Assembly: GCA_001804285.1 (NCBI GenBank)
Contig: MHFR01000037.1
Location: 149,952 to 213,951, forward strand
Direction: 5' to 3'
Length of the DNA stretch: 64,000 bases
From: Candidatus Danuiimicrobium aquiferis
GTDB taxonomy: Bacteria > Omnitrophota > Omnitrophia > Omnitrophales > Danuiimicrobiaceae
Under the pieces are notes generated by a model. The model had not been told where the DNA came from. It saw nothing but the letters and a program-made list of their open reading frames with translations, and made no database searches. Positions 6,001 through 42,224 of the stretch are shown here, piece after piece. How positions within the stretch are numbered: the stretch's first letter is position 1; each line of letters opens with the position of its first letter. Position numbers and translations under genes: made by a program.

Positions 6001-9000
6001 AACCCCGGAAGTGCTAAAAAATCCTCTACCTCTCAACGCATTAATGAGTGGCTGAACTACATGACTACCCAATTTAACAAGAGCATTTATAGTAGCTTCA
6101 TCAGCAACGCCACCAACTCTCCGTAATCTCCAAATATACCATTTTACCCAAAACAATTTCGAGATGAGAAAAAAAACGATGGCTGTCATCCCAAGCCCTA
6201 AACCACCTGCAAGAAACGGATAACCGGAAACAAAATTCCAAATCGCCGCGAAAATCCCCGCCCCCAAAATCGCCGCAAGAGGGCCCATACCGCGGAGTGT
6301 AACATCCTTCGTGACTTTTTCCCGCGCTTCGGAGCGCTGATCTCCGGATTGTCTTAGTTGTCTTTTAATTATTCTGATATCTCGCCGAAAAGTTAATCTT
6401 CCAAAATATTGTCCTTGCTCTCGAAAAAATCGTTCACGCACCTGATCCTCTGACATGTTGAATTCTTCCTGCAAATAGCCGCGGACAATTGCGCGGCGGG
6501 CCTCTTTGGACATCCGTTCGCCCGCGGTTTTAAGAAATCGCTGCAACGTATGTTCTGCTTCCTCAACTTTCCCAAAATCGTGGAGCTGACGGCTTCTTTG
6601 AACCAAAACATCCAAATCTGCCAAAATAGCGGCATACGGAATCTGACCTGCAATTAATCGTCCCTGAAGAACGGGCGGGGCATTTTGGACACCGGCGCCA
6701 ATTATAAAATCGTTAAGCAGATTCGCGGCATCAATTTCTGCCGTTGTCGCCGGCCTTCGAATCAGAAATTTCTGAAGCGTTTTCTCAGCCCTCCGGACTT
6801 TCCTGGAAGCATGCCACCGTAACGGTTGTTGGGTGACTTGCGCCGTCGTCAAGCGAATAAGGTCGCGGAAATACAGCGCCGCCGTATACCGGCTCCTTCC
6901 CGATAAATAAGCAGGATGATCGGGAATATCCCGGTCTCTCCGTTCTTTTAACAAATCGTAAAGTACCTGCGCCGCGGCAATTTCTGTTTTAGTCACGGGC
7001 TCTTCAACGAGAAGTCCTTGGATCATTCGTTCGGCATTGAGAATTTCATTCCTCTCGGTCCGGCCCCTCTCTCTCCAGTTATCCCGTAATTGCTGACGCA
7101 ACGCCTCGCCTTTCCGAAGCACCTCCCATAAATACGGCCCGACGGCACTATTCGGAATACGCGCTCTTGTTAAATTCTCGGAAGGCGCTACCGGCATTTG
7201 TTCCACCCCGATCGCATTAGGCGCGCGGCGAACACCGACATTACCCAGAAAATCGTAAATCACCTGCGCCGCATCGATTTCCGTTTTCGTCACAGATCTT
7301 GCCGCTTCCGGCGCGTATTCCTTCAAAACCGTTCCGAAACGCCTGATTCCGCTCCTTCCGAAAAACCATTTCAAAAACTGCCAAAAACCGCGGAATCGCT
7401 CTTTAAGAGAGTTGCCTTCAAACGAATTTAAAAATGGAATGACGATGACGATCGTAACAGCCGCCAGAATTGAAACAAGAGGAATCCACCCGAGAATTGA
7501 AGCGGGAAATACCCATCCGCTGGTTATCAAAGCGACAAATAGAACTCTCAAACCAACCGTCATTGCGGCTACAATGAAAAAATTCCTTGTAACCGTTTTC
7601 CAGAGTTTTTGTCCGTTCAACGAAAAATCAGCCGTTCGAAACCCGGGAGCCAGTGCCGAAGCTACTTTTAAGCGGAATTGAAAAACGGAAAGCGGCTCGC
7701 GGATAAGCCAAACATTCCTAACCCCTTCATTGAACGCTTCGGGCCACTGCCATGTCCATGGCATCTTGCTTCTTACCACCACTTCTCCGCCCGGGTAGTA
7801 ATCATAAAATCGTTCAACGGGTCGTGCGTCTTCAATCACATTTTCTTTAACCAGTTTCCCTTCTTGATTAAACTCACCGGTGAGGCTTCTCGCCGTCGCT
7901 GAACCGTTTGCATTCACATCTGTCGTTATCACCGTTCCCCGCGGCGTATCGGTTTGCAAAAAGCGTTTGCTCGTTCTTTCTACAAAACCGCCGGCTTGAT
8001 CTGCATCAGTTGTTATTACTATTCCGCCGCCGGGGACATCTTGCCGTAAAAAGCGTCTAATGACACGCGGCAAGGCGCCATTTTCATCCACGTCAGTCGT
8101 TATGACAAGGCCGACGCCGTTTGGAACGGTTCTCAGCAAGAATCGCTTGCTCTTATTGGACGCTCGGCCATTCCCATCGACATCGGTTGTTACAACCGTT
8201 CCCATTCCCTGAATTTCGCGCCACAAAAATCTCTTACTCTTGGCTGTTATTGACCTATCGTCATTCACATCCGTCACATTCGTCGTCACAAGAATTCCGG
8301 TTCCCGGGATCGGTCTCTGTGCAGAGCTTTGTAATAGTGCAGGATTACCATAATAGGCCAAGCCGTCAATTTCAGACAACTCTTTCTTGACCGCCCATAT
8401 TTTTGGTGCATCTTTCTCAAAGTCTTTCTTGCCTTTCTCGCTCTGCCTCAGAATCTGCGGATAAATAGCATCTAACAACCTTCTGTTCAGATACGCTATT
8501 TCGATCGTTTTCATGACAGCAGTGCGGTCCAGCACTCTGGATAGTAATTCCCTGGTCTCAATGTCGAGCCTGTTTCGCATTGCGGAATTCCTCTGAATGC
8601 TCTGGTAATCCGTCCGCCGCATCCTGGCGACGAGAATTTGATTTAATGCATTTGCCCATTCTTCTATAGTAACGGCACCGCCATTCCGCAGTCTTGTTCT
8701 TATGGCGTCAAGTTTTCCCTGATCCCATCCATTCGCTAATCCATTTCCCACAAAGGAATTAGCATCGAGCCTTCCAACAAGATCGCTCGGAAATATTGCC
8801 GGGGACGGATTTTCAGCCTCAACCCATTTTAAAATACTTTCGTAATTAGTGGTCATCCAAAACTTGCCGTAATAAGGAACCAAAGAAAATAGCCACGCCA
8901 TCCCTTGCATAACAGGCAACCAACCCATGATGCTAAGAAGTCCCTGCGCTATAAACGAGACTGAGAACAAGAACCATTTGCTGTAGATGATCAATCCTGA

Positions 9001-12000: not shown

Positions 12001-15000
12001 TGCTATTCTCGAATCCCTCGAAATATTTCCGGCGTCCAGATTACGCATTTCGATTTCGGGCGTCCCCACCGTTGCCCAATCGTTATCCGCATGAGCCATA
12101 TTCCGGACAGACTCTTTCATGACATCATAATGGCGATAATCTTCCAGCGCCTGTCCGTAGCCCGCCTCTTCTAAGTTTTTGCGCAGATATTTTTCAATTT
12201 CATTCAGCGTTTCACGCGCAATCTGTGAAGTTCTGATTAACTCGCTCGCCTTCCGCCCGTCATTTTTATTCTGCGTCTCAATTGCTTTGATCCGATCATC
12301 CATGGTTTTCAGGCTCATCTCAATCGATATCAGGTCGAAAAGTTTATTTCGAAGGTCTCTTTTTTGATCGTCAGTCAACGGCGTCGCGGGCGTAATCGCT
12401 CCTTCTATGGCGGCTATTTCCCGATTAAGCAGGTCCCGGCTTTGTTCAGCCGCGCTCCTTTCATCAAGCAATTTCTGATACTCCTCACCATATTCGGCCG
12501 CCCGAATCAGCACGCCAAAAATCTTATCCAGACTTTCCGGCGTTAACGTTTCCCCTTCACGTTTAAGCGTCCGGAGAAAGTTGGCAAACACCTCCCGATC
12601 CAGGACATCTTCATTGATCATTTTTTCGAAACTTTCAAGCGAAAAACCTTCAACATCGGTGCGGATCTTCTTAACAAACGGTTCTGTCATTCCGGTTAAT
12701 AATTTATCCGTGAACATACTCTCAACCATCTTATAGAGCTCATAGCCCATGCTGTTCTTTTCATCCATAAAAAACGCCATCCAGATTCGCTTGGAAGGGT
12801 CAACCAATTCTAATTTTTCCGAACCGCGCGCGTCAAATTCTTTCAAATTAAAACCGAGTCCTTGCAAGCCGATATTCTCGCCGTGTTCATCCGGATAATA
12901 ACCGCCGGCATAGGAAAAAACCGGGGTGTTGGTGAAAAATTCCTGCAGGTTTACATATTCGACCGGTCCGACCATGTCTTCAATTCGCTGATCGTGGGGG
13001 ACGGGTAATTTCCGGTTGGTTTGTCCGGAACTCCAGTACAACCACACGGTTGTAATGATAAGTCCGATTCCGACGCCGATCGCGAAATTTCCGAGTGCGA
13101 GACCGATCAGGCCGAGAACCGCCGATAGCACTCCGCCCTTGAGCGCTACATCCGCCCGCAATGTTCTCCCTGAAAGCGTATGATATTCAATTGTTCGATA
13201 TAAATTGCCGGCCCGTAAGGAAGTCGCTATATCCATAATCCAGCCGTATTTTTTGCTGACATTGTGGTTTGTTGCGGCCCACGATCGGTAGAGATAAATC
13301 ACGCGGCGATTCATTTTTCGTCCCAATGCTTCGGCCGCTTCTTTTTGCCGACGTGCTATTTCGAGAGAAATAGGACCCGATGACGCGATAATGAATACCG
13401 TAGCGGGGTCTGTATTACCGCGCATGATTTCTTCCATGTTTTTGATCGGGCCACTGTTAAAATCACCTAAATTTTCGTTCTTAGCCGTCGAAGGCATCAC
13501 AACGGCAGGTTTATACGCTTCGGGAATAGAATCGCTAAAACGGAAATGAAGAATAGAATCAAGATCAATTGTCGTCTGGCCCTTCCTCAAAATCTGGGGA
13601 TAAACCGCCTCTAATATTTTCCTATTAAGGGATTCTAATTCAGCCACCGTGAAAACAGCTGCGGGTTCCAGGGCCCTCGCTAATAATGCTTTAGTCGCAT
13701 CGTCAAGCCGGCTTAGCATTTTGGGACTTCGTTGAATGCTCCCATAATCTTGCACGCGCATCCTGACCGCCAGAATTTGATTTAAGGCGTCAGCCCACTC
13801 TTGTTTGGCAACAGTTTGACCATTCTCAATCCTTCCCCTTATCGCGTCAAGGACTCCTTGGTCCCATCCGTCAGTTAATTCATTTCCCCTAAAGGAATTC
13901 GCATTCAGGTTTCCGATGAGATTGTCCGCAAAAACTTTGTTTGTAGATCGATCAATCCTTTGTCTGATAAGTTCCTGCCTGAACTGTGCTTCGTTGTCAA
14001 AAACCGACTCTTTCACGGCTTCAGTATCAGTCGGAAAGCCCAGGCGCCTCAATTCATCCTCAAGGCGCGCTCGATCGTTAAAAATTTCTTGATTGATCGC
14101 ATTAACGTTAACACCCCCGCGGCGCAATTGTTCCTTGAGCCATTCGCGCCCTATTCCCTCGACATCGATTCCCTGCCGGCTGAATTCATCTTTGATCCAC
14201 GCTTTTTGGAACCCCCAAAGGTCAACACCGCGCGCACGCAATTTTTGAACGAGCGCCGCTTCATCGTAATAAATAGAATCCTTGACAGATTCAAGATCAA
14301 TAAAAGGAATCCCGAGAGCCTGCAACGTTTCCTCAAGCATGTCTCTATTGTCGAAAACCAAATCCTCCACAGAGGCAATATCAATTTTATTGGCACGCAA
14401 CGCCTCAGTCAGCTGCTTCCGATCATCAAAAACCGCATCGGGAAGCGTAATCCCGTGTATAGTTAAGCGCTCTTTCAGCCATGCTTTTTGGATTTCCGCG
14501 ACATCAATTCCTTGCCGGCTTAATTGTTTCTTCAGCTTCGTTCTTCCGCCTGACTTAATATCGAGGACAACGATCCCACGTCTTTTCAATTCTTTCTCAA
14601 GGCGCTTCTTATTGTTAATCGTTGCATCATCGATAGTGGTTGTATCAACCCCAAGGCGGGCCAGTTCTTCTCTGACCCATTCTCTTTCAATAGATGCGAG
14701 ATCGAGCCTTTGTCCGCCAACTCTTTGCCGGCTCAAAACTTCTTTAAATCTTTCTTTCCGGAACGCCCGGAAATCCGCGCTCCGCGGCGCCATCGGCTTA
14801 CCCCATAAAGTCGCCGTCCGGTCCATTGCAATTTTCCCAAGGTCAAGACTCAAAAAGAAAATATGAACAACCAAAAGCACGACCATCCCCGGCAGCACAT
14901 ACGCCCAATCTACGGAAAAAATTGCAATGGCCCATGCGAATACCCCTGCGATGCCGGTAATCGCAATCATCTGAAAAATCAGTTTGCTTGGGAATCCCCT

Positions 15001-18000
15001 CGGCCGGTAATTTTCATAATCCGGGCTCTTTGCGCCGACGGCCCCGCTCTCTCCGATGGTCGGCGTAATAAATGGTATGCCCGGATGCCTTGCAAACCAA
15101 TCCCGAATCTTCTGAGGAACCAGCCGGCTGCCGATCGGTTCATCCTTCTCTCCCGTTACCTGGCTCGCCCGTTTCCGCCGGATGGTTTCGCCCGTGATTA
15201 ATAGAAGTAGCGCAAGGAAAATAATAACCAGCCACTTCGAAATGTTATTCACAAGAATCCACGTGTTATGTTGTTTTGCTTTCCCTACCTCAATCGGCGC
15301 CTCGCGCAGATTCACAACTGCTTTTTCATCAACCACAGTTTTCCCATCTATTGTGATGGTTTTCTTCTCCGCTTCCTTTGCAAACTCTTTTTCCATTTCA
15401 TATTTCACGTGATTTTCCGCGTCTAAAACCACCGCACCGTGAACTTTCGATTCCCTTTTTAATTCAGCCTTACTATAAAGCACGTCTTCAGGGACAAGAG
15501 AAGAATGATCAAGGGAAACCCGGCTTATAACGGCCGCTATGGCAAAAACTATTTTAGGATATATTTCAAGTGATGTATCTTTGCGCTTCAATTGATCAAT
15601 CTGTTCTTGTAAAACCCGCAAATCAGAAAACAAGGTCTTAATCTCCGTCAACGTAAGTTTCCCTATATTACGCAATCGCAATATTTCATCTTTCTGTTCT
15701 TTAGTTAGCGTGATGCGATACACCAAATCCTTTTTCTTCTCTTGATCGAGAAATGTTTTAGCCCACAGATCAATTAAATCCGCGGGTTCTTTTTGCTCCT
15801 CCTCAAAAGTAATACTAATTTGCTCGTTGGCAGGCATTTTCTCAGCCAACCTGATAGCGACACCTTTGGCAAGCGTTATAATCGCTTTTCTAACGACATC
15901 CCTTTTCCCTGATTCATCTTTGTTAAATTTCACTTTTTCGAGCGCACGAAGCAACTCATCAGCATTTGTGATATAGCCATAGATGCGCTCTAAATCTTTT
16001 GAAACTATTCTAAAATCTTCTATCAAGGCTTTTAATCCTTGCGGTGTCACTTCTCCTGATTTAATTTTCTTTGCATATTCGGCCACAGCTCGATCCGAAA
16101 TCTTGACATGGTTTTTCTTGTTAAGCCGCATAACAAACTCTTCGTGCCCGTTATTGGCTAATATTCCATCTTCCACCTTCGAAAGCATTGTTTCATCAGG
16201 CCGCACCAAGAGCCGGTAACGGATAAACCTGTCCAACTGATTGGGCTCCTTTATGCTTATTTTATCCCTACTGATCTCTCCATAAGCAAGTTCGACAAAT
16301 TTATTCGATACGCCGTTCATTGTAAAAAATGCGGAAGAATAGGCCCGGACTACTGACGGCGAGGTTTTATCGCCTTCGAACAATTTCGCAAAAAACGCTT
16401 CCGTTTCCGGATCGAATAATATCCCAAGCTTTCTCTCCCCTTCCCACAAGACAAGCCGCCTGCCTTCTTGTTTGGGGCCGCTGGTTAATTGATATACCAC
16501 TTGACGGTTTTTAGTATCGGTTAAAATATTTTTGAAAAACTGTTCCGTTCGCCATAAGCCAATCGCGTCAGGGTTCCCTGCCACCCGGCTGACAATATTC
16601 CGCAAAGGTAAATTCGTATCCCACGCCAAATTACCATCACCAAGATAGGCAAAGATGAGTTCGTCAAACAACAGGTTCCTATAAAACTGATTTTTATCCT
16701 CCCGGCTAAGAAGGACGTTACCAAGATATTTGTTTGCATATTGCTTTTGAATTACTGCCGTATAATGGAACAAATTTTCATAATCCTGATCAGTCATGCG
16801 TTCAGGATCAATATTACCGATAGAATCCACTTGATTGGTATCAATAGGTATTCCATCCCAATGTTTTTCCCAAAGTTCCCATATTTTCTTTCTGTCCCCG
16901 ATGCGCTTTTCAACCTCCATCAATATAAGCGGTTTTCCGTCTTTGTACGGCGGTTTCTGCATCCGCTCTAACCAATGCAAGGCCCCGCCGCGCATATACC
17001 GCACTGCAAAACTCGGCAATAACTGCGTTTCCAATTCTTTCCTATCGAAAGTTTTCTCTTTGGTCTGCTTTTCCCCTTGAGCATCTGTCTCAGTTTCAAT
17101 CGATATCAAACCGCCTTCTCTCAATTCACTGTCTTCCATTAACCGTTTGATGTATTGATCAAAATCAGCCTTAGCGCTGACATCCATGATTTCATGGTGC
17201 ACCGGATAGGAACTATATAACTTAGCTACGGCTTGATAATTTGAAATTGCCGGTGCAATTTTCTTTAATTGATCATGGTCTTTCTCTTGCATTTGGTCAA
17301 TATCAGGAATTTCAATATCGCGGTCGTGCAAAAACTGCACATAAGCATTCAAGAGTCCTTCTGCGTATACGCGCTTAAACTCCTCTTTAATATCATCCAG
17401 GACCTTCTCCACCCCCAACCTTCCGTATTTCAATTGCTGGAGCGCGATAAATGCGTCCTCTTCCGCCTGATACCAATTCACCTGGTGCATTTTCTTGTCC
17501 GGAGTCTGATGACTAAATGAAATGCCTTTTAAGAACTCCATTTGATTCTTAAACATATCCGAAACCGTGCCGGTTCCTTTTAATATCTTTACGAGATTCA
17601 TTCGGTCACGCAAATCTTTCTCAAGATTTGCCTTGCTGTCATATTGTTTTACAAAAAATGACAACTGCGCCATTAGGTCGTTGAAACGGGCTTTGTGTTC
17701 CAAATCTTCTCCGGCATCACGAAATGCCTCGGAAAGCTCTTTCCGGAAATCATAGCCCGTATCGCCGTCATGAATCATTTTTTGATAACTATCGAAAACC
17801 GGAGATTCGAGAATTTCGATCAACCGCGTTGTCCTGGCTTCTCCTTCTTTCAGCCATGACAGAAGCAACCCAAGGTGAACCGGATTCTCGCGGTCAAATG
17901 TTTTCGTTTTTGACGAATCAATTGCATTAAAAAGTTTTTGAATCAACGACGATTTATTATCCTTATCCTTGGGTGGCGTGATAAATGAATCGATGCGGTC

Positions 18001-21000
18001 TGTGATTCTCTTCATTAAGTCCAGGATATCACTATCGCTCACACCGGGTCTTTTCGCATATTCATGCGCCACCATATGAATTAATCCTGCGCGAACACCG
18101 CTTTCACTGGGGCTCCAGATTTCACCCACCGGCCGTTTGAGTATTTTTTCGTAAAGGCTTCTGACTTTTGTTTCGAATTCCTTTGTAAATTCCGGGGTTT
18201 GGGTCTTGCGCGCCGCGAAAGCCTCGACATCCGCGTTCTTAAGACGCCATTGAATATCCCCTTCTACCACCAACGATTCAAACCAAGCCAAAGCCAGGGC
18301 GCGAATGTTTGAATCGTAAATAAAGGTCTCTTCGCTGATCGCGGGCAAATCTTCTCTAATGATTTCTCCGATGTCCGCGTAATATTTATTCGCCCGTTCG
18401 ATTCCCGCGCTTCTCGCTTTCGGATCGTTTAATTTTGCGATCAATTTTTCTCGTTCCACTTTCCATTTATCAAATCCCTTTTCCACGATAATGCCAAGTT
18501 CGGAGAGAATCATCGATTGGACACGAGGGTCTTTCTTGAATTGATCAAATGAGAAATCAGAGCCAAATATCGGAACACCGACTGCTTCGTAGAATTGCTT
18601 GATGGTTGAAGCGGCCCTGTCAATTTCGCCTTTTACTTTCCCCTCATTTCTAGCGTAATCAAGAATCCCGGATTTCCCGGCCTTCCCGTGCAATTTAGCG
18701 TGAAATTCAAAAACACCCTCTTTCGCCATAGCCGTCAGTTGTGCCCGGACAAGATTCCAGGCAAAACGGTTTTTCTTGAAATTGTCCATGGTGATTCCAT
18801 ACCGGTCTTTTCCACTCACCGCAATTTCGAGTTCCCGCGCATTATCAACGGCAATCTCCAACGCCGTTTTCCCGGATTTCCCGTCCTTCACGATCTCACC
18901 GCTAACAACATCGTATCGTTCAACAGTTTCCGCAGGCGTTTGTGCCAGCCATGCGAATTCCTGCGCTCCGACTTTTTCCGTTTTATCCCGACTGCCTTCT
19001 TCCGTCATACGCGAAAGCATTCCCATGACTTCCATCCGGACAAGATTATTCTTGAATACGTCTTTAACGGTGTAGACTTTGGCTTTATCACCAAACCGCA
19101 ATTTATTCGCCCGGTTCACTTGGCCCACGGCAAATTCCAGCGCCGTATCCGGCGCTTTTGCTTCGCCGGGCTCTGAGGATACCGGACGGGATGCCGCAGG
19201 TTGAGTACCCGCAAGTGGCGTTGCACCGGCAACTTCTACGGAACGGATACCAATCCGGGACACTTCTTCCTGCATCCTGAGGATTTCCGCATTCGATATA
19301 ATAGTCGGATGAACTCCAGCCGGGGCGGTTTGTGCTGAACCCGGCTGTGTCCAAAGGGACGGAGGAGGCAACACTGGCAGTCTAAACGTCAAGTTATTTT
19401 TCGTTTTCAAATGGTCACTCAAAAACGACATATCGTTTTGATGTTTATGAGCGTACGGATAAACCCCGCCCGCAAACTCCGCTTGAATGAGAAAGCTGAA
19501 GAAAACGCTGAAATGATCGGGAACAGATAAATACAGCCGAAGATCCGGATTCTGGTTTTTCAGCTGCAATTCAAGGAGCGCCTGCGCTTTTGCGATTTTA
19601 AGCTGTGCCTCATCGCCGATCATATTCCTGATGTTATTGATAAGCGTAACGAGCCTCTCCGGATTCGTTGCCGGGTCCATTTCCGGATGCAACAACAAGT
19701 GTGTGGCAAGACCGGATGCCATGCCACGTTGAAACGTCTCGGGATCTATGCGATTTCCCACTTCGGATATTTTCCCCTTTTCCTTTCCTTCTTCACCGAT
19801 AATCGCAACTGCCAAATTGTGATTTGCTTTAACAAGTTCAGTTGAGTTTATATAATTATCAATCCTATCTTGGTCACCGCCCGCAATCGCGCGGCTCCAC
19901 TGGAGATGAAGCGTAAAAGTTTCTAAATCGAGGCCGGTCAAATAGAATTGCGTTAAAGCATTCCAAAGCCCCATGTCCGCGGCATTGGATAGAACAAGCG
20001 GCTTATCTTTGTCACGATAAAACTTATTGATCAATGGCCTTGTTTCTTCCATTGCCTGATGATAGCGGCGGGCGACCACTCCGAGGCGTTCGGGTTTGAT
20101 GCCTTTCTGGTCTTCGGTCAAATCTTCGGCGCGGATCACGTTCTTCGCCTTCAAATCCTTAAAATATTCCTTTGTGAAATTTAAAAACGAAAGTGTTTCA
20201 CCGTTAATGTATGTCGAACGAACTTCCTTCGCTTCACGTGCCAATGCTTGGACATCAAGAAGTGTTAATTTATTCTTTTCCCCGTTTTGCCGAGCCTCTT
20301 CTAACAAGATTCTTAAATGAAACGCTGACGGAACTTGATTTAATAATTGCTTAGCTTCTTTATAAAGCGCCTCGGTTTCTGTGGGCGTTGGCATTTGGCC
20401 TTTTTGATAATCTTTAATGCGCTCAAAGATTTGTCCGTCGCCGATCGCACCAACGACCATGCTGTGGAATCCGACTTGATCGACAAGCGCATTTAATTGA
20501 GTAAAAAATTGACGGAATTTCGCCTCATGCTCTTTCCAAAACACTTCCGGATCCTTGCTGATCAAGAGCTGATCCATCAATTTAAATTTATAAAACAAAG
20601 AGAATACCGCAACCAACCGGCCATGGTCCCGGTCGTGGTCAAAAAATTCAGGGTTCTTAATTCCAAGTTTTGTGGTGTAGGTAATAAATTCGGGAAGATC
20701 GTACATCTTACGGAGGACAATTTGACGGTTGCGAAGTTGATCGACGGATTGCTTTGCTTTGAGCGCTACTTCTTTCAAAACGAGAATTTCCCGGTCCCAG
20801 GACTTTTGAAAATTTTCAAAATCCCGAATGCGCGCACGAAATTCATTCCACTTCTTTAATGTCTCCGGGTCCGGAGCTGAATCCGCAAAGGCCTCGCTAA
20901 CCGCTTTCACAACGAGATTATACGCCTCACGCGTTAACTGATCTTTACTCACCGTCTGCGTCACATCGAGAACTTTATTGAAAGTGGCCGGATCAATTTT

Positions 21001-24000
21001 CGGATAAATTCCGAAAACAAGCCCGCCATGATTCAAGGATTGACGCGCCGCATCGGCAGAATTTGTCACATCCATGATCCACGCATCCAACCTTCTCATA
21101 TCCGCAAGCTCAGATACCGTCAAATCCTGTCCGCTCGGGCGGGATATCATCCTGTTATAGATCAGAAGCATTTCGGCCGTTTCGGCGACACGATCGTCAA
21201 TAGACTTTGGCCGCGAAAATCCGATTTGTTGCTGTTTATAATCATAGACCCCGAGTTCAAAAGCCCAACCCATTAAAAACAGGTTTAGTTTTTTATCGCG
21301 GTCCCGGCCGCCGGCATCGGCAATTTCTTTGGTGTCAAACCGGTCCCTCAAAAACTCTTCCATAAAATTCGGGAATTTTTGACTCATGAGCGCCGGATTG
21401 TCCCGGATTTCTTGAATCGTCTTATTATCAATCAATTTTTTTGCCGCTTCCGTCGCGCGGCCTAAAATGAGTTTCATCTTGTCGACGGAAATATTACGCG
21501 CATGGGCAATTTCATAGAATTTTAAAACAAATGTGTTCAAATCATTAACATCAACGTGTCCCTCATAGGTCACTTTGAGCGCATCTAAAAACTGCTTTAC
21601 GGATTCTTTTATTTCCAACACATCGTATTTACTATTCGTCGTCTCAGGCGCGGTGGCTATTAATTCATCGTACGATGTAACCTTGGGCCGGAATGGCTCC
21701 TGACCTTCTAATGTCTTTTCGATTTGATTGTATCCGTCATCTGACAATTCTTGCGGAGGCTTGGCAATAATCGGGTCGGTCACTTTTTGAACCGCATCGG
21801 TTTGCTTTTGCGCCTCTTGCAATTTCAAATTCGCTCTCATCCTTTGGGTTTGATCGACGACTGACCGTAATACTTCTACTTGTCGATGCGACTCGGCATC
21901 AGGTTCCTTAGAAATGTCCTCTGTGTTGGTAAATTTAACTTCCTGAAATCCGATTCTTTTCGGATCGATACCGGCCAATTCGAGGCTGGCCTGAATCTGT
22001 TTGCTCCATGAAATGATCGCTTTAAACTCTTCGTTTCGCGCCCGTTCAATGCCAATCAATCTCGACCAACCGAGCGTAGGATGTTCGATATGCGTGCGCC
22101 AGTCCGAAGATTCTTCTTTGATCATTTTTTCCCAATGGGCCTGCTCGTTTCTCAACCCTTCTCTGAGTAACCTATCGCTAATATCAAACATATGACGGGA
22201 GACAACGTAATTTGCCAAAAGCTCCATATGCCTTCGCACGATATTGTTCTTTACATCTTTAATATTCCATCGCTCATGAAGTTCTTTAATCATTTCAGCC
22301 CGGGCCATATGCATTTTAGACGGATCCAAAGTCACCGTTCCATCTGCCCGTAGCGTAAACGGAAAACCAATACCGCCTTGATTGTCCCAGCTCCCTCTTG
22401 CGCCCACCGATAGTCCCAGCCCTCCTTCAAAATATAACGGACCAAACAAACCCACGTGAGCTGCTTCCGCCTGCGCTTTCTGGGCATCCGCTTTATTTTC
22501 CTGATAACGTAAATCCACGTCTTTCTGAGCCCACTCAAGCCATGTCTCCCTGCTCATTTTGTCGATATTCAAAACATTCGCCCGTTCATATCCGATCAGC
22601 TGAATATTCTCGGGGGTGACGAAAATCGATTCAGGATCGTCTGTGAATTCACCAAAAGCACCGATAAGGCGTTCGCGCTGTTGCTTCAAACGCCCCACCA
22701 CCACAAAGCGCATAAGGTTGACCTCATACGGCAGCTGTTCCGGACCATAAATTCCTTCAATCTCAATATGATACCTGTCAATTAATGTCCCGTGTTTTTT
22801 CTTAAAGTTTTCTATATAGGGCGTGCTCCGGTTTTCTTTAAGTTCTTCCGCCATTTTATCGAGCTCTTTCATTTCGGATAATAATTTTTCATATTCAAGC
22901 ACCATGTCATCCAAACCCAGCTCAACGGATTTGTTCTGCTTGAGCGTATTAAGGGCCTGATTTTCAATCATCTTTTTAGACTTTTCGGTCAAATGAATGT
23001 TTTCGAAGGTTCGATTGAGCGATAAATAAATAGACAAGGTAAGGTCCCATCCTGTTTTGGAAGCATGGAAAAATCCGCCCGTATCACGGCTCAATTGTTC
23101 TCTCCATCGCGGCCCGAATTTGCCTTGATATTCTTCGATATAGACACGCTCTAACTCAAACAATGCATTCCGATTGTAAGCGCTTTGTGTCAGTTCCCGA
23201 GTCCGATCATGATCGAGGACCTGGCTGGTATGATGCCTTTCGTCGATCCCCTGGTCGTCAACATCAATAGGTGTGTCAAACGCTTGGGTTAAAAGACCCA
23301 GACGCTCTGCCACTTCGGGATCGCCACCATTCGCATTCCCGAATTTTTTCCAAAACTCAGGAATACTTCGATAAAGAGACTCCCCCCGAAGCCGGTCTAA
23401 CGATATTCCGTTTTCTTTTAATCGCCCCAAATCAGGCATGCTGGCCAGCCTCACCACACTGCCAACAACGTCCATACGGTAATACATGAGGACCTGTTCT
23501 AATTTTCGCCTTTCCAAATCTAACTGGATTTTTCGTGCATCGAGCTCTTCAACCTGTTTTGCCTGCCCCGATTCTTGCGGCATGCGGGCTTTTGCTTCTT
23601 TAATCTTTCGTTCCAAATCATTGATGTCGGCTTGAACTTTTTCGTGTTTTGCAAACACACGCCGCAACTCGCCGACGTTTTCTTCCAGTTCGAGCAAGGC
23701 CGTCTTTCGATTCGTTTCCGTATCCCGCTGATACCGGCCTAAATTTTCAAGTGCAATAGCATAATTCAACAATGCTTTTTGAACGTCATCGTTCAATCTT
23801 GAACCGGTGATCCATGCCGAAAACCCTCTGGAACTTTTGATCATTGCCTTGACCTGGTCAACGCGATCTTGCGACGTGAATGGCTCCATCCGCAAAGCAA
23901 CTTCACGAATATATTTCACTTGTGCGTCTCCCAGTTGATTGATCACTTCCGGAATTTGCGAAAGCGCGAGAAATATTTCGGGCGTCGTGGATCCTGTTAC

Positions 24001-27000
24001 ACTGCTGATAATATTTTTGCGTGCCGCCGTTGTTTCCAAGACTTTCTCCGCATGGTCCTTTTGCGCTACCAAAAGGCGTGCGGCAGCAAATGGGTCCACC
24101 CTCGAATCCCGGTAAACTCCGCTGGTAAATTTAAAAATACCTTCCTGGTTCAACAAGGTCATACCGCTTTCCAAAAGTTTATCCCACTCACGTATCACAT
24201 GATTCGAGGCACTTTCACTTAAGGACAACCCCCCCTTGTCGTAAGAAGAATTCAAACGTTCAGGGAACCGGGCTAAGGATTGATCAAGAACAAGCAGAGA
24301 GCCTGCCGCCTGTAAAATCAATTGATTTAAAGTCTCCCGCGACCGGGTAGTTGCGCCCGCGTTCTGTTCTTCCTGCGTAATCAATTTGCTGACTTCCGTC
24401 TCTAGCTCTTTGATAAAATCATTTAAAAGCTGCCGATCGTTTTTAAGCTGAATATATTCGAAACGCAATTGCATTTCTTTCAGCTGAACATCGTTTTTAA
24501 CCAACTGAGCACCTTGTTCCCGTAAAATGATCTGAGAATCTATCTCGGCAAGAACCTGCTCGGCATTTCCTTTATATCGTGTGACGACTTGCACAAAACC
24601 AATGTTTTGGTTTTGCCACTTCATCGGAAGATCTGAAGAAGACCCGCCGCCCGCTTGATCCTTCGCCATATCCACGGCGCCTTGCGGCACGGAAATACTC
24701 TGATTTTGAACTTGTCCGACACCGGACGCTGTCGGTGTTACAGTTTGCTGTGAATACACCGCCGGAAGTTGCTGCGACCTTACCGCATCAAAATAGTTAC
24801 CTTGAGAAACATGCCCTACGCCCGGCGCAATCGGAGTCACAGATGAATATTGGCCGACACCCTCAGGAATGAGATTGGCCGCGCTGGAAATGCCCGGAAT
24901 CCCAACGGAAGCCGGAGTAAACCAGGAAAGCGCCATTCCAAATTGAGGCGGTACATTAGTAAACAGGGAAGCGACTTGAGAAGCAGTGCCCAACACCTCA
25001 ATGATCCCCATTGGCTGGCCGCTTGCCACAGAAATAACTGCTCCGGCAAGGCCTGCAACCTTTTGCAACTGCCCTAATTGAGACGGACCACTTTGTTTAT
25101 TAACCGCTGCTTGATCAACTACTTTTTGCCAGTTGGCTAAGAACGTAAATCCCACGGATTCGACGTCAACATTTGCAAAAGGGCCTCGCGATGAAATTTT
25201 TTTCCTTTCTGCTCTGAGGACATTCAGGTCGCTCGCTGTCACGGGATCGACTGCTTTATTGCCGGCTAAATCAATAATGTCTCCAAGTTTTAACGCTTCG
25301 CCTGTTTCTGTTTGCCGTCCTTCAATATCCTGTAAGGTTAAATGACCGGCAGTTTCAGCTCGAAGTCTTTTTATTTCTGCCGGCTGATCTTCTTGTTCCG
25401 CGGGGCTTAAGTCCTCGAGTCTCGTCAGCTTCAAATTTGCTTCGATTTTTTTCAGCAAGTCCTCTTCATCATTCAATTTCCCGAGCAACGGACTATCCGG
25501 ACTTAAAACCTTGCGGGCCTCCTCTATAATTAAACTCCGGACAGCATGAATTTTCTCTAAAGCCGTTTTGCGGTGTTCGGTCAATTTTTCTTTTGAATCA
25601 CCCGGTGTGTGAACAATTTCACGAAACCGGATATCCGCGTCCTGTTGATATTGAATCTGTGTGTCAAGCACGTGAACATATCTGTTTAAATTACGTAAAT
25701 GGCGATAGGCTTTGGCGAGGCGTTCTTTGCCGTCATGTTCCATGACCTCACCCCATTGTTCATTCAGCGACTGGTCGTTAAACCGCCAAGGGTCCACCAG
25801 AGCGCGGACCGGAGCAAGTTTTCCGTCTCTATTCGTGCCGAGGAGTTTGCCCGGCTTTCCGTCTTCCCAACGGAGCTGCTCTGCCCGAAGATCGTAAAAT
25901 AATTCATTTCGTTCTTGGAGCAATTTTAATGCCTCGCCTCTCGAAAGTTGACGCACCTGCTCTTCCACGTTGTAACGGCTCCTTGAAAGCAGACGGTCTT
26001 TTTTCTCTTCACGGATCCGTTCCCTTTCCCCATAAGCCCTTGAGAATTCTCCAAGCACACCGCGCAATGAATCGGCGGAATAGTGCTCGAGGTGTTTCGA
26101 GGTGTCTACAATTTTTTCAGCACCTTTCACCGGATAAATTTGATGAATGCTGTCTTGTACTTTCTGGTTCCAATTTCTAAGACTAATCGCATTCTTCTGA
26201 AGCTGGACGCGGATATTGTCCAAACGACTGACCGAATCAATCCAAATCAGTGACGCCAAACGGACCCTGTCAATAGATTCGATTCCCTTCTGCTGGTCTT
26301 GGAGCGCCAACTGATAATTTTTATAGGTTTGCCCCATCACTTTCTTTTGCTGGTGAAATTGCTCCTGAAGTGTTTTTGAATCTTTGACTAATTTTTCCAC
26401 TTCTTGCCGGTAGTCTTCCACCATCTTGAGCTGTGTCCGCTCATGCTCGACTCTTGGATGATTAATTTCCTCATCTGTCATGTCATTGCCTTTGATCAGG
26501 AAAAGATTGCCGATCAGGCTCAGCAGATTGACTCCGACAGTTTCTTGGAGCGTCAAACCGGCAATGAATTGATAAGGAACACTGCTAATGATTTGCCGGC
26601 TTTCATCGACTTGGCTTTGCAAATCAATAGCCGCATGTTCAACTTCAAGACGCCGTAATGCGAAACCATTTTTCCACACCATATCAGCCGGAACCTGCGC
26701 TTCTTCAGTCCGCAGCCATTTTTCAAATTCCGGAGTCAAAACGATTTTAGCGCTATTCGGAAGTCCCAGTTTTTCTTTCAGCACGCGTTCAATCCCCAGC
26801 AACTCCCGGTGCCAAAACAGGTATTGTTTAAATTGCTCGTTGTAAAGCGTTGCCACCTTATTCGGCGCTTGGTCATCGATGTGGAGTAGCATTTGATAGG
26901 CCGCACTTCCCAGCTCCCGATTCCATTCTCCGAGGTTTACCCCGTCAAATTTCCGGATCCGCTCCGCCAAAGAAACATAATCTCTTAATGCCGCATCCGC

Positions 27001-30000
27001 TTCATCACGCGCCTGATAAATTCGCTGCGCATAATCGAGTCTGGCTTTTTGAATGTCATTCAATGTTTTAAACTGCTCTTCCACCCGGCCCGGTTTTAGT
27101 TCGCCTTTGATCCCGATAAAAAACGATGCGCCTATTTTCCCAAATGTAAATTTTTCTCCGTTAATAAAAATGCCAAAACCGACAAACAATTTGGGCAATG
27201 CATCCCATTTCTGTCCTTTGTATTTCTCCCGGAGGGATGCCGCATCATAAAAACTTTCCTTCCCGTCAGGGTCAATCACCTTGAACACATAGCCGTCAGA
27301 CGCGGATAAAGCCATGTCTGGGGTTTCACCTGCCACAGGCGAAATTCTTTCTACTTTCACCTCTGGACTGCCCAGGATTTTTTGATATTTAGCCGGAACG
27401 TCGGGCCGATACCGTTCGACAACTAAGTCAAGGACACTATGAATGGTTTGGCCGTTTGCATCAACCTTCGGCGCAAACAAATCACCAATCATCACTTGAG
27501 AGGTTTCCGGTTCCATCGTTGTCATTTTCGTGGCTTCCTTTAAATCCGGTACCGGCTGAAGCAAACCAAAATTTTCAAATAATTTTCTAAACTCTTCTTC
27601 CGTTCGTTCCGTCACTCGACCGTTCTTTTTCTCCTGTCGGAGTTTAAATATCAGATCTTTAAGTTTTTGCTCAAATCCAGCAGGCCGCACAGCAAAACCC
27701 ATCTCGTTCAATCGTTCCGTAAGTTCTCTATAAGCGAGTTCGGCACTGACTAATTTTTCTACCTGGTCAACCATAAAACCTTCTAATTTTATGCGAACGG
27801 CTGATGGATCAACTCCAAAAGTCTTTTCAAAGAGTTCATTCGCTGAATTCACAATAAAAGCGGTCACGGGTTTTTCGGTCGGAGGTGTTGCGGGCTTTTC
27901 GGTCGGAGCGGGCGTCATGCGATTTAAAACATCAGCTACCGTTTTGGTTAATACGCCTTTAGCCTGCTCACTGTTTCTTTGCTTTTCCGGCAATTTTTGA
28001 AATGCCGTTAAAAATTCTTGTTTAACCTGATCCGGTGTAATTTTCCCCTGGACATTTTGAAGACTATTTTCATACCCGGGAAATTCCTGATCAAACAAAT
28101 TCTCTGCTTCTTCGGCAGAAAAAGGAACCGCCGGCGTCTCTGTCGCTCGAACCGCCGGTTCGGGTTGGGTCGCTTGCCCCGGCATTCCCCCGATGATCAC
28201 CGAAGCAATTGCACTCGTGAGAAAACCCTGCAGTCCTGTGACTAAAACCTTCGCAGTCATTGCTTTTGCGTCAGGCGGAGTCCGCGTCTTGTCGCCATTT
28301 AAAGCTTGTACGGCCACTTGCATTCTACTAAAAATTCCCGCACCGGCTTGTTTTAGCCAATCCTTGACAAGAAAAATATTTTTTTCTCTTCCAATTTCCG
28401 GAGACGGCGGCAAAACCGGAGTGGCTTTTTGCTCTTGAATGGCTTTCACCAGCTTTTCCTGTGCTTTTGCGGAAATCTCCATATAACCCACTAACCGGTT
28501 GTCAGCCGATTTGGAAGAAGTTTTGACAACCCGTTCAAGATCTTCCTGCAATTTTGCTTTTGCCGGATCGTCCGGCACGACTCGGATCAACATACTGGCT
28601 TGCGAGACACCCTGCATTTGTCTGTTAAAACGCACCGCTTGATTGACCGTTTCCATTTCCCGCGGCATCACTTTCATTTGCGGATCAATGCCGGTAATCC
28701 CCATTTCCACGAGCGGATTTTGGTGGCCAACGCCGATCGCTTGTTTCGCGGCAAACCCCATATCACTCGCAATACTCAGCGCTTCCACTTCAACCATTGC
28801 AAAAGCCGTATGCACGCCTGTAAATTTTGAAGCTTCATCCGTCAACGAACGGTCGAGAACCTGTGTTGCCCCATTCAAATCACCTCGGATAATATGAGTC
28901 TCAATATCCCCCAACACATGCTCGGATCCCAACACGTGAATCAATTGTTGCTCTTCAAGGGTTATCCGGCCGTCCGCCAATGCGGCTTTAATCATTGCTC
29001 CGGATTTTTGCGTTATGTCTTGATCGTTTTTCGCCGCATCCACGATTGCCTGTTCATCCACCGTCATACTGCCTAAGGTATGTCCGGTAGCTAAATCGAT
29101 TCCATGGTCAACCGTTTCACCCAACCACAACACGCCGTTGATTTCGAGCGGCAGAATCAAACTCATTCCAAGAGATGCCCAGAAAAACATTTTTAGCCAG
29201 AAGAATATACTTTGACGGGAAAATGCTGCTTTTTGGAGGGATTTGAATGCATAGGGAGTGGCAAGCCACGTTAACAATCCTCCGAGGAATGGAAGCCGGA
29301 CCCACCACGGATGAAGTTTTCCGATTTTGGCCGGCGGACCCGTGCTATCGGTCAGCAGGAGTTTCATTAATTCATGATACTCAGCTTCATGAGATAATCT
29401 CAAACGCTGATGTTGAATCAACGGAATCAGCTGCCCTTTTAAAAATGCGTTGATCTCATCATGTTGATCTGCCGTCAAACCTTCTTTGGTCCCTACCCAT
29501 GACTGGAATTCCTGATAACGGTCTAAAAAGTCCGGAGCCTGTAAATGCTGACCCAATGCTATCAATTTTTCTCTTACTTCTTTTTCCAAATCCAATCCAT
29601 CCGCTTGCGCCTGCCATGCTGCCGTTACCATCCGCATTTGCATCTGAGCAACTTCTTTCGGAAGATAAAGCCCGGTCACTGTCACCACCGATGATAACCA
29701 GCCATACAAGGTGAAAAATGCAAGGAACGTGATTGGAATTGCATAAAATTGCCATGATACTGGCAATAGAAGCGCACCGATCCCGCCAACGAGCCCCATA
29801 TAAATACGCTTATTCAGAAAATCCTTGGTTCCCCGGCTGACGGTTTGGTCATCCCAAACAACATATTTCGCAATGCTACTCCCGTCCGTAAACACCCGCC
29901 GGGCAAACGAAGCTTGAATGATTCCGGCATCCGTCAGTGCCCGCGCGTCTCCTGTTTCAAAACGATATCGCACCAACCGATAAATCTTGTCGGCAGTCAG

Positions 30001-33000
30001 GCGGTTTTGCCGCACACCATATTTCCACATCATTTTCGGAATGAAATTCACCAACAGGAAACTTTCCATCAAGTGATACGGTAGTGTAACCAGCTCTATC
30101 AACGCATCCAAAAATCCTTTTGTCGATGTAAATCGCGTCTTCGCCCAACTCCCGATCCCCGTTCCGATTGCTCTGACAAAACCAATCTTCTGACGCTGCT
30201 TCAGCGCCTCCATCACATGCGACTGCAACTTGCGTGATGCAGCCTTTTTCTGATGCAGCATTTGATGGTGTTCAATGTCAAGCGTCTCGTTCTGCTTTTC
30301 AACGTCCCTAACGATTTTCCACATGTTTTCCTTCGACACGTCAAAGATGGTTTCAAACCCGAATGAGTTTGCAATCTTATTCAATTCATCCAATTGAGCG
30401 CCGTGTTCGATGAGATAAGCGACCATATCTTCCCGGCTGGATACTGGCGACGGACGCGGGATCCTTTGGCCGCTCGATTTGCCGGTTTCCAACACGGTTC
30501 GGACACTCTCATCGTATGTCCCCGCGATGCGATGAATGGCTTGAATCGCTACTTCTGCAAAAGAAAAAATCATTTCGGCCAATCCCATCGACAAAATTAA
30601 TAAGAAAAAATTCGTGGTGACAACCGCAAACATCGGATGAAGCAGTGAAAAAAGAAATATAGTCGACAGCACCGACGTAAAAACCGGTGCGATGAAAAAG
30701 AATAAAAACGCACTGATCCCCATAACCGAAAGCAAATGCCCCCATCGTTCAGCTTTTGACGGACCGCGATTCGGTTGTAATATGCCCGTTCCTGGTTTTT
30801 CGGGCGGTACGACAGGCGTTTGAATTTCCGGAACACCCGGCGCTTTGGCCCCCTCGCGAACAGAAACCGCGGCGGCTCTTGTCGGCGGTTGCGCGGGCAC
30901 CTGCCCAATAGCTCGTGTCGGAGATTCAGGAATCGTCGCATCGTAATAGACATCACGAATTGCAGGTTTTCCACTGACAACAGTTTTTTCTCTTACTCTT
31001 TTATAGATTTTTCCGGCTGCCTTGTCTTGATCGGTCAAAACCGCATCAACATCAGTATGTGTGCGTGAGTTTAAGTAGCTACGGACCGTGGATAAACCAA
31101 CGCGGGTCACACTTGCGCGCGCTCTATCAGAAATATCATAATAAGTGCCGCGTTCCTCATTTGTGATAATTCCTTTGAGCAATTTTTGAATCACTTTGTA
31201 TTGGGGGCGCCCCATTTTCTCAACTTTGGCTTGATCGAGTTTCCCTAACACAAGAAAATCAACCATCACTTCATTCGCAAAACTTAATACCGCATAAACT
31301 TCTTTAATCGTGAAACCGTGTTTCCGCAGTGAAACGCCGTCAGGCAGAAGCGAATCCAGAATATTTTCTATTAACCGTTCGCGCTTATTGTGCAAATCAC
31401 GGCGGAATTTTATTAAACGGTCTCTTGCCGTTTCTTTTCCTGCCGTCGGAACAACTTTTTGTATTCCTTTGCCCGGCATAATTTCCTCTGAAATCGTTTC
31501 CCGGACTTCGGAACGCATTCTCACTTGCGCCGCTCGCTTGGCGGCCCACGTTTCCGGCGAACCGGCAAGTTGAGCCGGAGATATCGGCGTACGAGGCCGA
31601 ACAGTGGCTGCTTGCGTCGGTTGAGACGGTGGCGTTATTTTAGGATTGAAACCGGCAAGCCGGGCAAGATCAGCTGCCGTCAAAGTGGTCAATTCACCCT
31701 TCGCAAACTCTTCCCTGAATTTCAGCTGACTTGCTTCGAATTGGGCTTTCTCAACAATGGTTTGGTTGAAAGCCGCAGGTTCGGTTATCGTTTCCGCTAA
31801 TCCAATCGCAAAATCACCTTTCGAATCATAATAGTAAACTCGTTTCACCGTTCCGCCGGATTTCACGGGCACATCCCGCGAAATCCGCTTGATCCCGATC
31901 GCTTCAAGTTCCTTCAAATCCCTCCGGATGGTTGAATCGCTCACCGCAAAATTAAATTGATCAGGCGTGGAAGATGCCTCTTGAAGTTCCTCTTTCCGTT
32001 TTCGCATGAGTTCCGTTAGCGAAGCAAAGGAAAGCCCGCCCCGCTGATTGATCATTTTGAGCACTTCACGCTGGCGTACTTGCTTGAGTGCACGACGCGG
32101 GTTTAACTTCTGGCCTTTTTTGGCAAGCCGTCCAAGACGCAGATCGTATGCTACTTCCTTCAAATTCTCGGGGTCTAACAAAGCATAAATTTTCCGCGCC
32201 GTATTCTGATCGTAAATATTCTGCCGGATGCTTTCAAGCACGTCATACAGAGCCGGATCTTCCGCCTTATTAGTAAAAACCATTTCTTCATAATGAGCAC
32301 GCGCTTCGTTCAGCGCCGCCTCCGGTGCTTCGCCGGATGATGAAATTTTCGAAATTTCTAAAACGTATTCCTGCAAATCACTTTCAACTTGATGTAAGAA
32401 CGGTGTTTTTCCGCGCAACTGTGCCAGAATTCTCAAAACCCTCAAAATCATTTCCTTAATTCCGCTCAGTGCCGTCATGCGCTGGTCTGGTTCTTTCATT
32501 TCTAAAGCTTGATCGATTTTCTCTGCGATATCACCGAGCAACATTCGATAGGGGCTGTTTCCTTTTACATTCGTAATCGCAAATTTATTTTCCGCTTGAT
32601 TCCAAATGGCCCATAGTTCCCGCAAATCTTCGCTTTGCTCAATGACACTCGGGTCCTGAAATCCATCGCCCATGGAAGGGTGAAAATGAACCAGAATATA
32701 GCGGAAAGCATTCAAGTTATAAGTTGGGGGTTGTTGTAACCGAAAAAAATCGCGAACCCAAGGCATTTGCATGGCTTCTGAGTTTCCCTGGATTTCTTTC
32801 CACGACTTGAAAAATGGCCGCTTTGTTAGACTCATAGTCCCGATCACAAAGTCAATCACCGCCGCCTGCTCTTGAAGATTCAACTTTCCCCATTCCCGCT
32901 GAACCCCCAAAAACCGAAACATCCTGCTTAATCGTTGGGTTCGATCATCGCCTGTCGGCCCGGTCACAGGCTTTTGTGCAGGTTCAACTACCGCCGCATG

Positions 33001-38400: not shown

Positions 38401-38562
38401 ACCACCGCGGGCACGAATAATGACGGAAATAATTCCGCGGCCGGAGCCTTGATATAATTCTATGGGAAGGAGATACAAGGAAATACATCCAAGCATCAGC
38501 AAGCAGGCGAAAATAACTGCCGTCAAAACCGGTTTCTTTGATGCGACTGTGGGTAATCCCAT
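35437..38562 (-). CDS. RND efflux permease (AcrB/MdtC family), second of a tandem pair
   Basis: The 1041-aa ORF has the typical RND N-terminus (TM1 then a large periplasmic loop) and a 12-TM layout. It is a paralogue of the upstream RND gene. Confidence 0.9.
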   Translation of the reverse strand: MGLPTVASKKPVLTAVIFACLLMLGCISLYLLPIELYQGSGRGIISVIIRARGGLPPLEMERMITRLVEESVSTVSHLKTMYSNSRESESRVTLEFEVGTDMKFAALEVREKFSRVKGLLPSEIEKPVIANYQDSDSAVLIVAIVSETMSPEDIRSMIDQELKPVLDRVNGVASVEVYGGRERKILVELDRDKMFAYNISIERVMDVIGASNVALLAGSYERGGYDFAIRTMGMFTSIDEIGSIGVKATRQGSIIPLSEIATIKDAYLEPEDYARLNLSPNVSVYVKKVSTANTIQISDAVQKTIQGFMMDRKEDLHPIIISDKAKLIKRAINDVRDSLLIAIILVFAIIYVSLRRTLISLIVTSTIPVSIVATFFFMDRLGFSINVMTLSGLTLSIGIMVDSAVVVVENIVRKQEDGIAREEAIVNGAEEMFVPLLASLFCSLCVFVPIVIVDQQIRLTYAGFIFTVCSALIIALLSAVMLVPLLLLKTNALDAKSGLLGTFSSYYQQTLNAMRKVKFINFMIGQRKEKKRSAQQKYSNLLSKSFKIRYPVLIATVLLLVFSLWRLLILPMDLPSQLEENEFQLVVFPLAGAKLEANDEAARKLEELLHEYPDVELISTTVQKDDLRLFVRLVPRAKRKVAKEVIMDEVKKKGEEMIKQIHDEYSLIVDQGASSEESKKMIVNIFGLENDTLEKLAHEAAQKMSSIKGLTNLVMTDLRKRPEYSVVIDKAKAAFYGLTVREVADSIHAQVRGMRPTKYHELKKGIEIETITRLQPIYRQKIEDLNNIYIVSPKDGTQVRISQIAGLVPSRGPQTIDRKDKYRYVYVKGDVTRPLEAIAKELKETLKGIKFPKDYFWRFGGAYEDLMKGKSKLALGVLMSIVLVYMVLASLYQSYTQPMMIMMAIPLGVIGVWAILAFSRKYLSEQVFIGMVILVGYVVNSSIILIDRINHLKKDIPDVRERLVKAARDRFRPILITSLSTIIGFMPMAFSQSESSELWAPLALTMIGGIISSTFLTLFIVPNFYLYFEDLKNLLKKKVHL

Positions 38563-38590
38563 CTTCCGGACCTACTTACGTTTAAATTTT

Positions 38591-38758
38591 GTATTTGTTT
38601 AGCGTTTTGAAGTGGCGGACACGGCCACTCGTGTCATGCCCGCATGTTTTAAGCGGGCATCCATAGTTTCTGGATTCCCGCTTTCGCGGGAATGACAGAA
38701 AAGTGGGCAATCCTTAACAGATAATCACTTCAAAGCGCTAAATAGACACTTTAATTTT
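38591..38758. repeat. MITE/REP-like palindromic element, full copy with terminal inverted repeats (TIRs)
   Basis: The TIRs are tatttgtttagcgttttgaagtg ... cacttcaaagcgctaaatag. Internal hairpins are gtcatgcccgc/gcgggcat and attcccgctttcgcgggaatgac. It is nearly identical in organisation to 46244-46434. Confidence 0.75.
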
Positions 38759-38783
38759 TTTGAAAACATTGGCTCATTACGCG

Positions 38784-42008: not shown

Positions 42009-42026
42009 TTCATGTCACTCCAAACT

Positions 42027-42140: not shown

Positions 42141-42224
42141 TCGCTTCTACGAAATACCGTGAGGATAGAGAAAATTGTTTTATTCTGCGGTAACAAATGG
42201 GTGGGAGGGGAAAACTATCATACA

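Follow-up and report, generated by a model that had tools for sequence, protein, structure and literature searches.

Two copies of a rare, predicted helical domain within a giant protein of Candidatus Danuiimicrobium aquiferis

A giant open reading frame (ORF) of Candidatus Danuiimicrobium aquiferis (Omnitrophota) contains two similar segments that lie far apart, which raises the questions of what was copied, how the copies came to be there, and what they might do. The ORF was analysed within a stretch of 64,000 nucleotides (nt), referred to here as the window, which covers positions 149,952 to 213,951 of contig MHFR01000037.1 (assembly GCA_001804285.1). A first-pass annotation of this DNA had proposed that an extracytoplasmic domain and its membrane anchor were duplicated together, and that the giant gene grew in this way. 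The reading that is judged probable here is that the two segments are paralogous copies of a rare, discrete domain from a shuffled family, derived from an old duplication within the gene, kept by selection and putatively acting as an adaptor. The ORF and the two copies, A and B, are located as follows.

1..35202, minus strand: giant ORF, running past the left end of the window; full product 12,008 amino acids (aa)
13576..13935, minus strand: module copy A, 120-aa core (protein residues 7090-7209, frame residues 7103-7222; hidden Markov model (HMM) envelope 13555-13953)
8437..8796, minus strand: module copy B, 120-aa core (protein residues 8803-8922, frame residues 8816-8935; HMM envelope 8416-8817)

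Frame residue numbers count from the start of the stop-free frame and protein residue numbers from the initiating Met. The window holds 11,734 aa of the giant protein from its ATG, the C-terminal 274 aa lying beyond the left end.

Similarity of the two copies and extent of the copied unit

When the giant protein was compared with itself in chunks by BLASTP, copy A aligned with copy B over 120 aa without a gap (55% identity, E 2.9e-41), and the Smith-Waterman score of the pair was 335, compared with 28.5 +/- 4.4 in shuffles (z about 70). Self-comparison of the whole ORF at the DNA level by BLASTN paired 8436-8783 with 13575-13922 (67%, E 1.4e-24), the only substantial off-diagonal match. Over the two cores the DNA identity is 239/360 (66.4%), or 67.5, 75 and 56.7% at the first, second and third codon positions, respectively. 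HMMs built from either two or eight members, run with hmmsearch --max, detect two copies and no more in the part of the protein that the window covers, and these are dispersed rather than tandem, 5,139 nt apart in the gene and 1,713 aa apart in the protein. The homologous pair of modules of about 120 aa recognised in the first-pass annotation is confirmed by these comparisons, which place an off-diagonal match where the pair had been located: the exact coordinates differ by 15-37 nt, the spacing and the DNA identity (put originally at about 70%) were essentially right, and both copies contain the motif quoted for the pair, ANSFxGNxLxxGWDQGxLDAIR ... YPQILR.

The surroundings of the two copies were then compared, for which the following features are needed.

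14845..14967, minus strand: hydrophobic pair upstream of copy A (frame residues 6759-6799, Kyte-Doolittle scan)
13942..14784, minus strand: tandem helical repeats immediately before copy A on its upstream side (frame residues 6820-7100, motif 'W[LI]KE.L.R.G[IV]D'), outside the duplicated unit
13030..13149, minus strand: hydrophobic pair that follows copy A after 145 aa (frame residues 7365-7404)
9667..11862, minus strand: polytopic hydrophobic cluster between the copies (frame residues 7794-8525, about 15 segments)
8917..9042, minus strand: hydrophobic pair that precedes copy B by 43 aa (frame residues 8734-8775)
7774..8343, minus strand: repeat units of about 30 aa that follow copy B ('SKRFL...V[IV]TTDVDxNG', frame residues 8967-9156), outside the duplicated unit

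Copy A lies 307 aa after the first of the hydrophobic pairs and 145 aa before the next, and it is preceded by 280 aa of helical repeats that have no counterpart near copy B; the repeat zones beside the two copies belong to unrelated families. Flanks of 150, 300 or 500 aa, upstream and downstream, resemble each other no more than shuffles do (z -1.1 to +1.5; for upstream against upstream and downstream against downstream, z -1.1 to +0.5), and no direct or inverted repeats common to the flanks of both copies were found. BLASTP between 400-aa windows centred on the copies returned the same 120 aa as the sole match (E 4e-40). Because BLASTP aligns only these 120 aa, and because the flanks are unrelated and differently arranged, the domain alone appears to have been duplicated. 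The statement that each copy lies next to a hydrophobic transmembrane cluster is loosely true, but the arrangement differs, the nearest pair being upstream of copy B and downstream of copy A; likewise, in the proposed segmental duplication of domain and membrane anchor, the duplication of the domain stands but the anchor was not copied with it. Nor does the pair show how the giant gene grew, because one old duplication of 360 nt amounts to 1% of the gene. Comparisons across the two sides were negative as well, except that the flank downstream of A set against that upstream of B reached z 3.0, which was rejected as a gappy alignment in which the transmembrane hairpins are not involved. The polytopic cluster between the copies has weak similarity to the transmembrane region of another Omnitrophota giant (L015). 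The repeats downstream of copy B carry DxDxNG-like loops, a motif of exported calcium-binding repeats, which may count in favour of an extracytoplasmic domain with its anchor.

Predicted fold, rarity and distribution of the domain

The consensus of 35 aligned modules is sFxF...DL.G...A.SL.GNGL.DGWDQG.LDaIR ... EW..ALN.IL..RMR..DY ... LL.kAL ... LNRrLLEa.YP, from which the hallmark motifs GNGLxDGWDQG (in the N-terminal segment), EEWxxALNxIL, RMRxxDY and LNRRLLEAxYP can be recognised. N52 and L103 are invariant in this alignment, W24, L55, Y64, L85, N104, R105 and L108 are nearly so, and conservation extends to the hydrophobic core; the 35 modules have no Cys, His, Ser or Thr in common. AlphaFold2 models, built with a 20-sequence alignment, have a predicted local distance difference test score (pLDDT) of 86.7 for copy A and 88.3 for copy B, and a predicted template modelling score (pTM) of 0.80 for each. 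The predicted fold consists of six helices, at the same positions in A and B, following an ordered N-terminal segment without regular secondary structure; DSSP assigns one bridge residue near each end, at position 17 and at position 127 of the segments modelled, which suggests that the N and C termini of the module adjoin each other. The module is, as modelled, a discrete, autonomously folding domain of some 120-130 aa that is mainly alpha-helical.

A profile of the two copies, run with HMMER against 1.84 billion cluster representatives, retrieved only 20 proteins (E<=1e-3). Five module loci were located in 185,579 species genomes, and six in the JGI metagenome collection, the latter using a 6-sequence alignment. 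When all 20 members were scanned against Pfam, NCBIfam and PHROGs, no family was matched by more than two of them, the best matches (E 0.001) being to single unrelated families. No significant match to the module was obtained in a sequence profile search of the PDB (E>=0.14), nor in a Foldseek search of the PDB and BFVD with the module model (E>2, template modelling score <=0.31), and literature matches for GWDQG, DGWDQGKL and LNRRLLEA were confined to unrelated peptides. The domain family is new, in that it is absent from the curated libraries and from the literature searched. A word-indexed protein search returned nothing for copy A, and only P0019 for a 25-sequence profile; it misses the giant protein itself and 19 of the 20 module-bearing representatives, so its negatives for giant-protein domains are unreliable. 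The exhaustive search of representatives was relied upon because the word-indexed database seems not to index most carriers of the module.

Among giant ORFs of Omnitrophota, the module is present in one to at least five copies. L013, L014 and L023 have a single copy each within the retrieved sequence (L023 has in addition half a copy in the preceding ORF), L027 has two, and the contig shared by L015, L025 and L028 (Ga0172380_10000675 = JBAYVF010000008.1) has at least five. The giant ORF at L028:2-15412 itself has at least five. In two of its copies, 30-40 inserted aa separate the GWDQG part from the helical part, and another comprises the C-terminal half only; the domain is therefore divisible into sub-elements. 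The stretches common to the window's giant and the other Omnitrophota giants are the N-terminal 500 aa or so, a region resembling glycosyltransferase family 2 (GT2), and the module, and nothing else. The N-terminal region (window about 33530-35080, frame residues 54-570) is 24-30% identical in P0005, P0009, P0012, P0016 and L015, rising to 57% over a 91-aa piece of L015. The region that overlaps the weak GT2 match (window about 1290-2800, frame residues 10813-11318) is 34-36% identical in P0009 and P0012. No significant Pfam match was found in either of these two shared regions.

Outside these giants, the module accompanies a wide range of partners, and its hosts include enzymes that modify glycans as well as lectin-type proteins. 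It is found in a 739-aa B12-binding radical S-adenosylmethionine (SAM) protein, encoded beside a paralogue and a GT2 gene (L017); in a protein of the arrangement SPASM-module-radical SAM-F5/8C, encoded in a polysaccharide-type cluster (P0011); in a MORN_2 protein that has a hydrophobic anchor at its N terminus (P0003); in a protein whose N terminus resembles a signal peptide (P0008); together with Big_9, Laminin_G_3 and fn3 domains (L024); and in a giant with HPr and phosphoenolpyruvate-utilizer domains. The sulfotransferase P0010 is encoded in a cluster that also contains genes for synthesis of 3'-phosphoadenosine-5'-phosphosulfate (PAPS), for glycosyltransferases, for an ATP-binding cassette (ABC) transporter and for RgpF. 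Its match to Sulfotransfer_3 covers profile positions 1-162 with the module in place, and becomes single and continuous over positions 1-214 of 216 after the module is deleted; because the deletion restores a continuous match, the module is a true insertion inside the sulfotransferase fold.

Two further hosts, P0001 (with two tandem copies) and P0017, are both encoded in a conserved RadC ... DUF3987 mobile-element module. At these loci (L029:8001-9770 and L031:3581-4804) the two proteins have a common N-terminal domain, and the order of genes is SIMPL, small ORFs, RadC, small ORFs, the module protein, DUF3987 and DUF669/HTH_17, an arrangement that resembles the replication region of an integrative mobile element.

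The partner domains are both of cytoplasmic type (B12-radical SAM, sulfotransferase, SNF2 and HPr) and of exported type (signal peptide, Laminin_G_3 and fn3), and for this reason the side of the membrane on which copies A and B lie cannot be inferred from them. A crude analysis of topology by the positive-inside rule gave an ambiguous result, and the earlier designation of the domain as extracytoplasmic is not established. In other hosts the nearest hydrophobic segment is often over 1,000 aa away from the module, or the protein has no such segment. The module family behaves as a shuffled cassette.

Origin and role of the two copies

Comparison of copies A and B gave rates of nonsynonymous (dN) and synonymous (dS) substitution of 0.31-0.36 and 0.83-1.24, respectively, and a dN/dS ratio of about 0.25-0.43, from which it follows that the duplication is old and that both copies are under purifying selection. 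A neighbour-joining tree of 120 core columns joins A and B as sisters in 67/100 bootstraps and also recovers the within-gene pairs L027a+b (89/100) and L015b+L028e (87/100). The A-B DNA identity (0.664) is the highest among all pairs that involve A or B. The two copies most likely arose, to judge from such comparisons, by an old intragenic duplication of the domain alone, although this is not proven. An excess of identical codons between A and B (37 against 25 expected, z 3.4) was considered as a further link at the DNA level and discarded, since pairs from different genomes reach z 4.2.

Several observations weigh against a duplication within the gene. The protein identity of 55% between A and B equals that to L013, L024 and P0002, so that by this measure the copies are no closer to each other than to modules from other genomes; two copies within the L015 giant, a and b, are sisters in 0/100 bootstraps; and an earlier tree, which included non-homologous flank columns, gave the A+B grouping a support of only 24%. 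Taken with the presence of the module inside a sulfotransferase fold and in mobile-element proteins, these observations would be explained if A and B had been gained in separate events, through shuffling of domains or the insertion of a cassette at each of two sites. We regard this as unlikely, though it is the most serious of the alternatives, given the joining of A and B in the core-column tree and their leading DNA identity. The base composition of the copies matches that of the host gene (the guanine-plus-cytosine (GC) content of both is typical of it), and the flanks have no repeats in common, which likewise speaks against separate acquisition.

If the copies do descend from a duplication within the gene, then that event would have copied only the domain of about 120 aa, without a membrane anchor, and both copies would subsequently have been retained under purifying selection. 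The domain would sit in soluble loops of a giant protein threaded through the membrane, where it might serve as a non-catalytic module for binding or adaptation, in protein-protein or ligand recognition. Such a binding or adaptor function is the best guess that the data allow, because the module has no conserved nucleophile, His or Cys and no typical catalytic residues; because its fold is compact, its termini are predicted to lie together and its insertion into another fold is tolerated; and because its partner domains, of cytoplasmic as well as exported type, are so different. The conserved polar residues (D, W, N, Y, N, R and E) would equally fit a specific ligand pocket.

It is tempting to go further and to suggest a docking cassette, by which module-bearing free enzymes are recruited to the giant, or else a mobile in-frame cassette that is passed among genes and mobile elements, but this idea is speculative and rather improbable. 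Were docking to occur, the sulfotransferase, the radical SAM enzymes and the lectin-type proteins would be expected to bind matching modules on the giant, which would then be a programmable scaffold with several identical docking sites. The presence of a small, non-enzymatic-looking module both in a giant scaffold and in free enzymes recalls dockerin/cohesin pairs and HEAT or TPR scaffolds, but the analogy would be functional only: neither in sequence nor in fold does the module resemble dockerin or cohesin, and it contains no calcium-binding motif.

Could the module instead be a selfish element, inserted in frame into hosts that tolerate it, much like a Rickettsia palindromic element or an intein no longer able to splice, rather than being selected for a function in them? 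Inteins, with their HINT domains, and the Rickettsia palindromic elements are in-frame insertions in host proteins, and the module resembles them in lying in frame in unrelated hosts, even inside an enzyme fold, and in its patchy spread over hosts and phyla; its presence in mobile elements, its predicted adjoining termini and the several dispersed copies in some giants would also be in keeping with such an element. We nevertheless consider this reading very improbable, in view of the purifying selection at the protein level on both copies, the conserved hydrophobic core and confidently predicted fold, the very low copy number, and the failure to find terminal repeats, target-site duplications, or endonuclease or splicing residues; the excess of codon identity, too, is specific to no pair. 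Unlike inteins and HINT domains, the module is predicted to be all-alpha and has neither a conserved Cys, Ser or Thr nucleophile nor a His-Asn pair; unlike the Rickettsia elements, it has no palindromic DNA. Assignment of the module as an intein or HINT domain was itself tried and rejected, the fold being helical rather than beta-rich and the 35 modules having no conserved Cys, Ser, Thr or His. The joint duplication of domain and anchor has in its favour that both copies lie 43-145 aa from a hydrophobic pair, but it is scarcely credible when the flanks are unrelated, only 120 aa align, the hydrophobic pairs stand on opposite sides of A and B, and the module in other hosts is not tied to transmembrane segments and is fused to cytoplasmic-type enzymes.

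The host gene and its neighbourhood

Window positions 1-35241 on the minus strand form one frame without a stop codon, within which the public assemblies call the gene start as the ATG at 35202. The same gene, encoding 12,008 aa, is called on the European Nucleotide Archive (ENA) contig ERZ27254845:k141_2650573, which matches the window at 100% identity over the part compared, and on MHFP01000041.1 of NCBI assembly GCA_001804245.1. In a Pfam scan of the giant protein HEAT_2 was matched (E 6.7e-9) and otherwise almost nothing, with no match at either module position; a Kyte-Doolittle scan shows about 30 hydrophobic segments. With more than 10,000 aa, many transmembrane helices, HEAT repeats and an origin in an Omnitrophota genome, the host gene has the features of an Omnitrophota giant ('Archaeovorin-type'). 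Proteins identical to the neighbouring ProS are recorded for Omnitrophica bacterium RIFCSPLOWO2_12_FULL_44_17 / Ca. Danuiimicrobium aquiferis.

Such giants have been described as mosaics with multiple transmembrane segments that are rich in HEAT repeats (bioRxiv 10.1101/2023.11.21.568195; 10.64898/2026.06.07.730766). According to the second report, 65% of the Pfam-positive long Omnitrophota proteins repeat a Pfam domain, and these repeats reflect old duplication and later divergence, with nucleotide similarity largely dissolved (Nielsen & Lui 2026, bioRxiv 10.64898/2026.06.07.730766). In the typical arrangement, a type II/IV secretion-like locus is depicted upstream of the giant gene, with PilZ genes on its downstream side (West-Roberts et al. 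2023, bioRxiv 10.1101/2023.11.21.568195). The present protein agrees with these accounts in its length of over 10,000 aa, its multiple transmembrane segments, its HEAT repeats and its possession of one domain in repeated and diverged form; it departs from them in that the repeated unit is not a Pfam domain, is not mentioned in the sections cited and is dispersed, with 1,713 aa between copies, rather than tandem. It differs also in its setting, since no type II/IV secretion-like locus was found upstream of the gene, where there is instead an efflux operon of the resistance-nodulation-division (RND) class. This comparison of the locus was judged on the upstream side, the gene's downstream region, and with it any PilZ genes, lying outside the window.

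Because repeated and diverged domains are already the rule in Omnitrophota giants, there is nothing unusual in the duplication; the novelty lies in the domain alone, one among promiscuous accessory domains, and little is added on how giant genes grow. Most of the sequence of these giant proteins is unannotated, and a module that recurs and is confidently predicted to fold is one of few handles on it. As the module is found also in small, tractable proteins, it could be expressed, its structure solved and its binding partners sought.

The giant protein has three tandem-repeat zones, mutually unrelated, two of which abut the module copies; the third consists of 'TKTEIDAAQV.YDFL' units of about 92 aa (window about 6530-7380, frame residues 9288-9570). 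Directly upstream of the giant gene and on the same strand is a tripartite RND efflux operon with its full set of genes (window 35437-45383). It encodes a TolC-like outer-membrane efflux protein (OEP; 599 aa), a membrane fusion protein (MFP; 412 aa) and a pair of AcrB-type pumps (1,074 and 1,041 aa). The operon is preceded by a helix-turn-helix (HTH)/cupin regulator (HTH gene 45443-46069) and, before that, by housekeeping genes, among them proS (46583-48289).

The interval between proS and the HTH gene contains a breakpoint, at window position 46247. Between 50289 and 46247 the window is matched at 99.9% identity by two public contigs, ERZ27254846:k141_1861515 and ERZ4903137:k141_2894929, the second of them 56 kb long. 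Past 46247 both differ from the window: a HEAT_2-like gene product of 305 aa and a gene for 371 aa on the other strand replace the block HTH-OEP-MFP-RND-RND-giant. Position 46247 is a strain-level rearrangement or an island boundary. At the far end of the housekeeping block, on the opposite strand, is a gene of the phage integrase family (window 61327-62541, plus strand; 404 aa, E 1.7e-29), and the GC skew flattens over the last 2 kb of the window.

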